A DNA stretch of 54,634 nt, the filler included, from Streblomastix strix (lineage: Eukaryota), in assembly GCA_008636045.1 (NCBI GenBank). It is 3 parts of 3 records of this genome, joined end to end, with 100 filler letters (N's around TTAATTAATTAA, not from the genome) between each part and the next. Parts side by side here need not be neighbours in the genome. Positions count along the whole stretch, not along the records: positions 18,272 to 36,423 come from SNRW01000635.1; 2 more parts are not named here. One strand, written 5' to 3'. A program made the position numbers and the translations under genes. Under the pieces are notes generated by a model, which ran no database searches, was not told where the DNA came from, and saw only the letters and a program-made list of their open reading frames with translations. Within the stretch, counting starts at the first letter, position 1. The number at the start of each line of letters is the position of its first letter. Shown in pieces: positions 18,172 through 36,523 of the stretch.

Positions 18172-18271
18172 NNNNNNNNNNNNNNNNNNNNNNNNNNNNN
18201 NNNNNNNNNNNNNNNTTAATTAATTAANNNNNNNNNNNNNNNNNNNNNNNNNNNNNNNNNNNNNNNNNNNN
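18172..18271. other. Artificial contig-joining linker
   Basis: 44 N + TTAATTAATTAA (six-frame stop in the standard code) + 44 N. Confidence 0.98.
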
Positions 18272-20297: not shown

Positions 20298-20458
20298 GCA
20301 TTCATACTTCAATCAGTCAAAAATTGTTTTGTTATGTTTTATATTATTTAGGAAAAAAATAAGATGTACATTTTCAACAATAATTTGATACAATTACGCA
20401 AACGATTCAAGAATGATATGATAATATATTTTCATATTTGGTGTTGGTGAATAATCGA

Positions 20459-21495
20459 TCAGAGCACAGAGCAGCAACTTTAGCCACCTGTGTCTTCTCC
20501 ACGAACTGCAGCCAGTATTGCAACATCAAATGCTTCTTTAACACCAATATTCTTGAGTGCACTGCACTCCAAGCATCCAACTGCTTTAATTTGCTTTGCA
20601 ATTTACTTAGCACGTTCCTGAGACAAGAATTAACGATAGATTAAACAAAATTAAAAAAAGTGATCATACTGGTTATGCGAAGCGTGAATCATTCTATAAT
20701 GCAGTTCCTCTAAGATCACTCTTTGTTCCAATCAAGATAAAGCGTGCTTTTGGACTCTTGCTTTTGGCCTGCATTAAGTATAGAGAAAAAAAAGAAAAAA
20801 ATTATGAAAATGTTTTTATGAAAGGCTATATATACAAACTTCTGGTACCCATTTTTTCAATACATTTTCAAGAGAGTTCTCACTATTTACAGCATAGCAG
20901 ACCAAGAATATGTCTGTGTTGTCGTAGCTGAATAATCTCATGGCAGCATATTCTTCCTGCCCTGCCGTATCCCAAAGCGAAAGGATTACTTCCTCCCCAT
21001 TAACCTATACCATGCTTGTGTAGTTGTCAAATACACTGCAAAAAATAAAATTATGTTTGCGAGAAGAGAAAAAATCATAAAAAGAAAGAAAAAGAATAAT
21101 AACTTCAGGTGCATACGCTGTATGTAGTGTAACATTCAAAGTTCAAGATTAGAAATAATTCAGACATTAAATAAATATATAGAGAATATATTTTAATCGT
21201 TAAGAGATATGAAATCGCTGATAATAAGGTAAAAAAGAACAAACTGGGTACGTACTCTGAACAAACAATTTCATAAGAAATAGATATATAAATTAAACGT
21301 AAATAGAATAAATTGTTTATACCAGAAGGATATTCTCCCTTCGCATACACTGTAAGTTGAGTAAAAATGGAAAGAAAGAAAAGCCGAATTAAAACATTTT
21401 CGGTGAAGCATACTAATTAGAAAACATGTTTTTCCGACAGCACCATCACCAATGATAACTAGTTTGATTTGCTTATCGCCCTGCGGAACAGACAT
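20459..21495 (-). CDS. Rho/Rac-family small GTPase
   Basis: Motifs IKLVIIGDGAVGKTC, EYVP(T)VFDNY, LWDTAGQEEY, GTKSDLR and ECSAL, with C-terminal CAAX CSVL then TGA. Includes a 12-nt exon (21245-21256) and an inferred 1-nt exon (21117). Confidence 0.95.
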
Positions 21496-21643
21496 CGAAA
21501 AGGGAAAATAATTGTATGGGAATTGACTCATTAAAATTTGAAAGTTTTGAAGTTGTCTAAATAAATGTATGGATTTATCCAGGCAATTTAATCTTAAACG
21601 AAGAGTCGTGTCAAAGGAAGTTATAAAATGTTGAAGGCTCTGA

Positions 21644-21714
21644 GCATTAGTGGTATAGGGGCAGCATGCCAGCCTTCCAAGCTGGCGACCCGGGTTCGAG
21701 TCCCGGCTAATGCA
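21644..21714 (+). tRNA. tRNA-Gly(TCC)
   Basis: Acceptor stem GCATTAG/CTAATGC, anticodon arm CCAGC-CTTCCAA-GCTGG, T arm CCGGG-TTCGAGT-CCCGG. Confidence 0.95.
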
Positions 21715-22365
21715 TATTTTTCATTCTATTGGATTTGACTTTTTTTTTATACTTAGAGAGTATTGAACAAATGAATAATTTTAATGAAATGCATTTATAT
21801 GTAATTTGAGATCACATGAACTAATAATGAAATCATAAAAGTAGTTAGTGCAGAAAACAAAACAATTAAATTCTTTTTTGTTTTATTATTGTAACTTAAC
21901 ATATGATTTATGTTAATAAATATAGTTTATGTTATAGTTCTATATTTAAATATTAATATTAACATAATTAAAGAATAATATATGAATATTAACACGAAAT
22001 GCCAATATCAATTTTCTTAGAAATAAATCAAATTTATACTGCAAAACAGCACATTAATGTTATTATTTGTTCTATTTCACGCTTGTAATATATTATATTT
22101 GAGAAAAACATTCTCTAATAACTAAGTTTAATTAAAACTTACATTTTTAATCATTTAATTAATTTTTATTTTATTTTATTTCTATAAATTTAATTATTTT
22201 AAAATTTTATATTTTCATAAAATAAATATTTTTAGATATATATTTATATTGTATAAATATTATTCACCATAAAATATCCAAACCCATCCTTACAATACAT
22301 CGAAATCATTTAACTATTATCATTATATCTCTTTTCTAATTTAGTAATAGTACTTCTATAGAACT

Positions 22366-34884: not shown

Positions 34885-35206
34885 AATATATTTTACACAT
34901 ACGAATCACTTGAATTAGCATTATTTTTTGATCCAAATCCATAATACACTGATTTATAAACAAAATTAATTGAATATGATATAAAAATTTAAAAATATAT
35001 CTAATTTTATTGAAAAACAAACTTAATTATATTCCCATGTCTGGAAATAACAAAATATTTTCTGGAGTTAAATTTCTATGACATATTCCATTTATGTGCA
35101 ATTGGTTAAGCCGCAATGTAAGTTCTTCAATAAAGTTAAGTATATCCTATAATTAATATAATAAATTATTATTATTAATAATAATAATAATAATAAGGTA
35201 AAATAA

Positions 35207-35253
<47 letters not shown>

Positions 35254-36423
35254 GGTAAAATAAAATAATAATAATAATAATAATAATAAGGTAAAATAAA
35301 ATAATAATATAAATTTATTTTTTCTTAATGAATACATTCAAGCTTATTTATTCTTCTTTTTCTTTCATTTGATTAATGTACTACCGCAAATTTTGACATA
35401 CACTACATTAAAATTATATCTAGCCCTTTGTTCCATTTAATGAAAGAAACAATCTTTATGGTCTAACAAAATAAGTTTGAGGAGATGAAGCAGACGAAGG
35501 ATTAATTTAGATTTTACAAATGTTATATATTTCAATCATTGATGTAAATTCACTCAAGATGCCATCTAAATGCCCTTCACAATAAATATCTATATATTAA
35601 TATTATGATTAGTCTTGACAAATTTTTATTGGACCTGGGGAAGAAGCTGAAGGAGAAATGGCATTTTATGGACATTGATGATATAAAGTTTAAGATGAAG
35701 GAGATGAAGTTGGAGAAGGAAAAGATGTGTTTGAAGTTTATTATTGTATGCTAATGCTATTTCCCTGAAATAAATATTTATATATAAACAATTATAATAA
35801 TTATAAAATTAATTCTTTATAAAATCTTTATTTTAACCTCTTCTGTGGCCAACCATTACAACAATCCTGGAAGAATCTCAAGAGTTTACACAACTATCAT
35901 TCGCCCACCATTATAATTTTAGCTTCTAAGCGAATGATTATTTATATCGCCAATTCCAATAAAGTCAATTTGAACTCCCATCTATTCAAGTTCATCACAT
36001 TCAATTAATGCATCAATATTTGAATCGCAAATAACAAAAACAATTATTCTCTTATTATCATCCAAATATTATTTAAACAATTCAACGGCTTTTTGAAGAG
36101 CAATTTTTATGTTATTTCCTTTTCCATTTTATCTTTCTGGTGTTTTTATATATCGGCTTTATTATCGAGCAAATATTACATTTACTTAGTCTGAATATGA
36201 TATTACAGATATAAATGCTCCTTTTTAATTCTGAATACGAATGAATTCATTTTCAATGTTTACCAAATATTAATGTTATTCATCTTATATTGAATTGGAT
36301 CCATCAGAAATAAGGATTGTATGTTATTTTAAGTTGCCTTAAACTTAATCAGAATCACGATTATCAATTCTTCCTTATTCATTTTATTATTTTAGATTCA
36401 TATTAACAATTAAATCATGGCAT
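33780..36423 (-). pseudogene. vWA domain + protein kinase-like gene, frameshifted
   Basis: vWA: TILISDGSNS, ISVISYSDQVNVIF, GNNIKIALQKAVELF, RIIVFVICD. Kinase: GICHRNLTPENILL, SNDIWSMGIIIVELL, DPQDRIKTDQIL. A frame change occurs just before HRN. Confidence 0.65.
34688..34846. repeat. 22-bp minisatellite (~7 copies), intronic, followed by (TA)n
   Basis: Unit AATGAAAATATAAGTTAAAAAG repeated in tandem. Confidence 0.9.
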
Positions 36424-36523
36424 NNNNNNNNNNNNNNNNNNNNNNNNNNNNNNNNNNNNNNNNNNNNTTAATTAATTAANNNNNNNNNNNNNNNNNNNNN
36501 NNNNNNNNNNNNNNNNNNNNNNN
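36424..36523. other. Artificial contig-joining linker
   Basis: 44 N + TTAATTAATTAA + 44 N. Confidence 0.98.

Follow-up and report, generated by a model that had tools for sequence, protein, structure and literature searches.

In a Rho GTPase gene of Streblomastix strix, a single C at position 21117 of the window (the whole stretch of DNA analysed, 54,634 nucleotides with filler) is present in the spliced transcript and very probably forms a constitutive spliceosomal exon of one base, which all of the oxymonad Rho clade has probably inherited. The base is the middle one of the switch I Thr codon, which is split over three exons: the genome reads A, intron 3, C, intron 4, T, and cDNA-like contigs read A-C-T, restoring Thr35 of switch I. 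This was the main claim of a preliminary description made from the sequence alone, and the contigs bear it out; its coordinates for the 12-nt exon (21256-21245), the 127-nt intron, the C, the 81-nt intron and the exon beginning at 21035 are also right. Four sequencing runs (X1-X4) match the stretch, and their contigs were aligned to 20300-21800. The small GTPase gene has seven exons and lies on the minus strand, at 21495-20459 of the window. Its parts, with the basis for each, are as follows (X2 and X3 are the cDNA-like runs).

21414..21495, minus strand: exon 1, coding part (ATG, P-loop GDGAVGKT); joint 21349/21414 in X2 and X3.
21350..21413, minus strand: intron 1, 64 nt, phase 1, donor GTATGC; missing from X2 and X3.
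21323..21349, minus strand: exon 2, 27 nt, with T and then GTATGC at its start; whole in the cDNA-like contigs.
21257..21322, minus strand: intron 2, 66 nt, phase 1; sequence and contigs.
21245..21256, minus strand: exon 3, a 12-nt micro-exon encoding E-Y-V-P and base 1 of the Thr codon; letters 1-12 of the 13 between the joint sides.
21118..21244, minus strand: intron 3, 127 nt, phase 1, donor GTTTGT, acceptor CAG; not in the cDNA-like contigs.
35 nt upstream of the end of intron 3, minus strand: candidate branch site CTAAT; sequence motif.
21117, minus strand: exon 4, the single C, middle base of codon 41 (ACT, Thr35 in Rac/Cdc42 numbering); 13th letter in X2 and X3.
21036..21116, minus strand: intron 4, 81 nt, phase 2, donor GTATGC, acceptor CAG, in frame and stop-free; not in the cDNA-like contigs.
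20840..21035, minus strand: exon 5 (last base of the Thr codon, VFDNY, DTAGQ); sequence and contigs.
20769..20839, minus strand: intron 5, 71 nt, phase 0; missing from X2 and X3.
20670..20768, minus strand: exon 6 (TKSD, shortened Rho insert); sequence and contigs.
20618..20669, minus strand: intron 6, 52 nt, phase 0; missing from X2 and X3.
20459..20617, minus strand: exon 7, coding part (ECSA, CAAX-type CSVL, TGA stop); a poly(A)-like tail joins near 20327.

With the C included, the seven exons sum to 576 nt and yield an open frame of 191 aa under NCBI table 6. The frame is open only under that table, as it holds five in-frame TAA/TAG codons, all at places where Gln fits; the preliminary description had not mentioned them. 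S. strix reads TAA/TAG as Gln (PMC1501061). The P-loop, switch I Thr, DxxG, TKxD and SA motifs of a Ras-superfamily G domain were all found, Pfam PF00071 was matched with an E value of 5.7e-41, and the best solved-structure relatives are Cdc42 and RhoA. The protein shares with Rac, Cdc42 and RhoA all G-box motifs, the switch I sequence YVPTVFDNY and a CAAX-type C-terminal end (CSVL); its Rho insert is present and about 6 residues shorter than that of Cdc42. In Rac1, Thr35 binds Mg2+ and the gamma-phosphate (PMC8154616). On the other strand, some 150 bases upstream of where Rho translation starts, is a tRNA-Gly(TCC) gene (21644-21714, plus strand).

The C, which becomes nucleotide 122 of the coding sequence, is flanked in the genome by AG and GT (CAG-C-GTATGC at 21120-21111). 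Without it the frame shifts and a stop is reached at codon 73. Only two AG-n-GT candidates (n up to 39) occur within 21244-21036, and the 1-nt one alone keeps the frame. When the 193-nt interior was shuffled 20,000 times with dinucleotides preserved, AG-N-GT arose in 6.1% of the shuffles, YAG-C-GT in 2.0% and YAG-C-GTATG in 0.035%, while equal tiles of the window held YAG-C-GT in 10 of 560 cases and YAG-C-GTATG in one (the 21117 site itself); these patterns were picked after the site was known, the GTATG consensus itself being taken from PMC1501061. According to the same source, S. strix introns span 46-229 nt, most being 60-100 nt, with A, U and G at donor positions +3 to +5 and a pyrimidine before the AG. 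GTATGC, the donor that follows the C, recurs at intron 1 and agrees fully with that consensus. The U12 donor motif is GTATCCTT or ATATCCTT; the donors here are GTTTGT and GTATGC, and a U12-type assignment was rejected. The oxymonad M. exilis is described as being without minor-spliceosome parts (PMC6759080).

Across the whole window, YAG-N-GTATG occurs at 7 sites compared with 1.49 expected. Five further sites (9882, 25440, 35397, 44823 and 51595), read by eye, are probably ordinary donors or coding sequence. The start of exon 2 (21344-21352, minus strand) reads CAG-T-GTATGC and so resembles a one-base exon, yet the contigs keep exon 2 whole. This in-gene negative control indicates that the motif alone is insufficient for a one-base exon. 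Structures predicted around the C were weak and disagreed between the two stretches that were folded, and they were set aside.

The spliced sequence was read from X2 and X3, each of which gave one contig (747 and 719 letters, depth 64.3 and 46.7). Both contigs have four joints whose skipped parts end in CT..AC, corresponding to introns 1, 5 and 6 and the block 21036-21322, and all six introns are absent from both. In place of the block stand 13 letters, namely exon 3 plus the C of 21117, which are contiguous nowhere in the window. The junction thus reads exon 3 plus C between 21323 and 21035, the product for which the preliminary description had proposed that transcripts be searched. The bases adjoining exon 3 and exon 5 are both G, so neither exon can supply the C. 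In both cDNA-like runs, which come from one study, the base is therefore part of the mature transcript and does not come from the flanking exons. Although neither run is recorded as RNA, we infer that both are cDNA because introns have been removed, the X2 contig has a poly(T) loose end at 20327 and the X3 contig has a loose end that we take to be a template-switch adaptor. Contigs of this kind report the main joined product, and not splicing intermediates, lariats or rare isoforms.

The length of the insert also bears on whether the main product arises by another in-frame route, either from a donor at 21240 (giving P-S-F-V-F) or by retention of intron 4. Both would keep the frame, and retention is what the deposited model KAA6400020.1 depicts. 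The two routes would leave 16 and 94 letters, respectively, between the joint sides, against the 13 observed, which rules them out for the main isoform. The alternative donor (PSFVFDNY), raised beforehand as an outcome that would overturn a one-base exon, did not appear in either contig. One extra residue at this place is also found in none of the 313 scored non-oxymonad Rho proteins, and we regard such a route as scarcely plausible.

The public annotation illustrates how the exon escapes notice. The exon 5 peptide is 100% identical to KAA6400020.1, a 218-residue protein labelled Streblomastix strix putative Cdc42, in which intron 3 is spliced correctly and intron 4 is read through, adding 27 residues after the Thr. 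The cDNA-like contigs contradict this read-through, and the expectation that gene finders would miss the exon is borne out. The database name was not upheld as a sign of Cdc42 orthology: in the tree described below, the protein is joined by four more from oxymonad Rho genes and stands away from the Cdc42 pair, and its nearest named relatives are Monocercomonoides Rac1a and Blattamonas KAK2958781.1.

We also considered whether the assembly lost a base where exon 3 ends or where exon 5 begins. DNA coverage is shallow (depth 7.56), and the evidence consists of contigs and not raw reads. The X1 DNA contig nevertheless equals the window over 20300-21565 with 0 differences and 0 gaps, so the missing base that the preliminary description had named as a possible refutation did not appear; X1 and the window may, however, share one sample. 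A different study supplied X4, which gave a 151-letter DNA contig over 20967-21117 with 8 differences and no gaps, spanning the border between exon 5 and intron 4 and ending at the C, and two X4 contigs in all cross that border gap-free. An assembly error would moreover explain neither the consensus splice site nor the faults in the models of other species (see below), and it retains minimal probability. The second X4 contig is about 80% identical over 20914-21045, with listed changes silent in 11 of 12 codons. Its alignment extends 10 letters into the intron 4 acceptor, a weak hint that it may represent a relative with an intron at the place of intron 4. Insertions of 5 and 1 letters in intron 4 in X4 were discarded, as they fall in a low-complexity patch matched by unrelated contigs.

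Relative to the window, the X2 contig differs at 8 letters and the X3 contig at 7, and of the two places listed the coding one is silent. These differences imply that the transcript was not read from the same allele or cell as the genome. They leave room for a reading in which the transcript derives from another allele or a near-identical copy with the C inside a flanking exon, the copy in the window being broken or otherwise spliced. We consider this highly unlikely: the frame of the window copy is intact and its site for the C is perfect, the gap-free X4 contig over 20967-21117 shows intron 4 in a sample other than the window's, and other oxymonad models fail at the same codon.

Removal of one 209-nt intron, with the C then inserted by RNA editing or by a slip in reverse transcription, would give the same mature sequence, and the contigs cannot separate it from splicing of a one-base exon. 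Such an insertion is barely credible, as a C with consensus splice sites already sits in the intron, an arrangement met in 0.035% of shuffles, and as the same base is present in both runs. No editing that inserts a C is known to us in the nuclear mRNAs of these organisms. A precedent is placozoan cox1, in which a single C, initially open to an editing interpretation, proved to be a 1-bp exon (PMC5436844). That case is mitochondrial and involves group I introns, whereas the Streblomastix exon lies between nuclear GT-AG introns.

For the one-base exon, we envisage that the major (U2-type) spliceosome would take out the two short introns successively, by intron definition, each step treating the unspliced neighbouring intron as part of an exon. 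Sequential splicing has been proposed for APC11, without proof there (PMC4674806). From the consensus donor GTATGC to the exon 5 acceptor is a distance of 81 nt, and skipping the C would need a 209-nt intron from the weaker donor GTTTGT; the nearer, stronger donor would thus favour inclusion of the C. At the exon 2 look-alike, the real donor is the one closer to the next acceptor (66 versus 92 nt). Spacing seems to decide donor choice, a heuristic drawn from one gene, and further weak donors and acceptors are present in intron 3. Occasional transcripts lacking the C would meet the stop at codon 73, and nonsense-mediated decay would probably remove them. The exon may have originated in an oxymonad ancestor, when a second intron was gained one base from an existing intron, inside the Thr codon. 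It would then have persisted because neither the Thr nor the frame can be lost. A comparison of introns 3 and 4 showed no likeness beyond chance (259 of 1000 shuffles scored as high), and hence no sign of intron duplication.

An addition to this reading, which we judge unlikely, is that the exon is real and doubles as a regulated switch, with skipping (frameshift and decay) or in-frame retention of intron 4 lowering Rho signalling. The skipped form stops 197 nt upstream of the last junction, UPF1 is reported in S. strix (PMC1501061), and intron 4 is a multiple of three, in frame and stop-free; a Blattamonas model has a 20-residue read-through at the same place. Retention isoforms are known at the one-base exon of plant VPS55 (PMC8831610), but none was seen here in the X2 and X3 contigs. 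One joined form, with the C included, was found in both runs, albeit in contigs that drop rare variants. Read-through models arise only where the intron is in frame, three of the five broken oxymonad models use other work-arounds, and with TGA as the sole stop in this code, stop-free introns are common. The stop-free intron 4 with its length divisible by three and the Blattamonas read-through are probably products of ascertainment. The earlier suggestion that skipping could act as an off-switch found no support: skipping would truncate the protein, but any frame-shifting exon would have that effect. Given lower credence still is a combined proposal in which the exon dates from the oxymonad ancestor, occurs in every Rho gene of the clade and acts as a switch through the Mg2+/GTP-binding threonine, where inclusion would give active protein, skipping would destroy the message and retention of intron 4 would insert residues into switch I.

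The one-base exon of S. strix has probable counterparts among other oxymonads. Five of the six oxymonad Rho models retrieved, from three genera, are broken at this same codon, compared with five of 313 other Rho sequences. The faults are of the kind that a missed 1-nt exon would cause; conservation is inferred from protein models. One (P0005) carries 27 extra residues with intron 4 read through; P0123 from Blattamonas reads T-Y-V with 20 added residues, P0239 from Monocercomonoides T-Y-A-S-I-I, and P0125 and P0133, both from S. strix, P-S-I-V and G-K-L-Q-R-T-V. The T-Y-V and T-Y-A of P0123 and P0239 would correspond to the C plus GTATG read in frame, like the T-Y-A of read-through in the window. 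In P0125, P-S-I-V could reflect an exon 3 extended by four bases, bridging a phase-1 donor and a phase-2 acceptor, and the Q-R of P0133 may be CAG CGT, the acceptor-C-donor motif itself, translated. Alternatively, the 12-nt exon or routine errors of prediction could account for these faults. P0124, a different model of the same Monocercomonoides gene as P0239, has the normal P-T-V-F. In the older Monocercomonoides annotation many models were hand-curated, and 2838 were altered on transfer (PMC8767320); the older model of this gene being correct, its curators may already have met the exon.

A tree of 26 hand-picked rows from 333 proteins, with P0239 omitted as a second model of P0124 and with Paratrimastix and Trimastix outside the sample, placed the five oxymonad genes on one side of a branch with support 96/95. 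This single clade fits one origin before the oxymonads diversified, which happened about 100 million years ago (PMC10703272). On the strength of the protein models and their grouping, conservation of the one-base exon across oxymonad Rho genes appears likely. A search for AG-N-GT in orthologous DNA met no oxymonad genomic locus among the metagenome loci or prokaryote genomes scanned: the metagenome scan returned 80 loci at 51-63% identity or lower, none oxymonad-like, and the prokaryote scan with P0125 gave none among 97 candidates.

Outside the oxymonads, the same codon appears constrained. P-T stands directly before V/I-F in 78 of the 80 related metagenome loci, and the remaining two have an intron there, before the Thr codon in L014 and, in L048, between the second and third bases of that codon, where intron 4 lies in S. 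strix. Between the P-loop and the Thr, 62 loci are uninterrupted, many of them probably transcripts, 13 were modelled with introns and 5 were not modelled; among the 13, the position of intron 4 is occupied once and that of intron 3 never. L048 (1463-1498) is a Rho gene of another eukaryote that uses the standard code and has an ordinary intron at the intron 4 position, which may reflect either common descent or parallel gain. Of 326 non-oxymonad proteins, 313 were scorable and 13 were dropped. The spacing from GK[TS] to VF is 18 residues in 308 of the 313, 39-66 in five and 19 in none. As these protein and locus matches are redundant and were picked by similarity, the counts serve as background and not as a statistic.

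One-base spliceosomal exons have been described in Arabidopsis APC11 (PMC4674806), plant VPS55 (PMC8831610) and Fusarium CYP621A (PMC12940212), and Coprinopsis cinerea has 13 one-nt exons in 13 genes (PMC12230235). The preliminary description's term "very rare" is thus fair as to frequency, but the kind was already known from these four sources. The closest parallel is CYP621A, whose exon is likewise spliceosomal, supplies the central codon base of a conserved motif and joins a phase-1 donor to a phase-2 acceptor; it is conserved over orthologues, supported by RNA reads and missed by pipelines (PMC12940212). It differs in belonging to a fungal P450, in being a G in a Gly codon and in its restriction to one genus (PMC12940212). 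The Streblomastix exon, in contrast, belongs to a metamonad with a TAR=Gln code, is a C in the nucleotide-binding Thr of a core signalling GTPase, adjoins 12-nt and 27-nt exons and probably occurs in three genera. The APC11 and VPS55 exons resemble it in being constitutive, required for the frame, misannotated, conserved in their clade and placed between GT-AG introns (PMC4674806, PMC8831610). APC11 was proven by base substitution in vivo (PMC4674806), whereas the Streblomastix exon rests on cDNA-like contigs. Coprinopsis cinerea shares internal 1-nt exons and an intron-rich genome; it differs in that no link to a Rho gene was found in the excerpt of that report (PMC12230235). Among the literature matches listed, drawn from a corpus that mostly leaves out subscription journals, a one-base exon in oxymonads or in a Rho gene was unreported.

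Our results extend one-base spliceosomal exons from plants and fungi to a distant lineage of mitochondrion-less gut protists, with transcript support. If the exon is kept across three genera and several paralogues, as is probable, these genes would offer a natural series for asking how a pair of introns ends up separated by a single base, and which of the two is removed first. There is also a practical consequence for users of public data. Switch I is damaged in five public Rho models, KAA6400020.1, KAK2958781.1, KAH7820558.1/XP_067724416.1, KAA6403145.1 and KAA6400239.1; the damage is an annotation fault in the first and probably in the other four, and readers of these models would wrongly infer an unusual effector loop in oxymonad Rho proteins. 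Elsewhere in the window, N-rich spacers at 18172-18271 and 36424-36523 divide it into three pieces of about 18 kb, a sign that separate contigs were probably joined, and a long TTA/ATT microsatellite tract lies at about 35140-35300.
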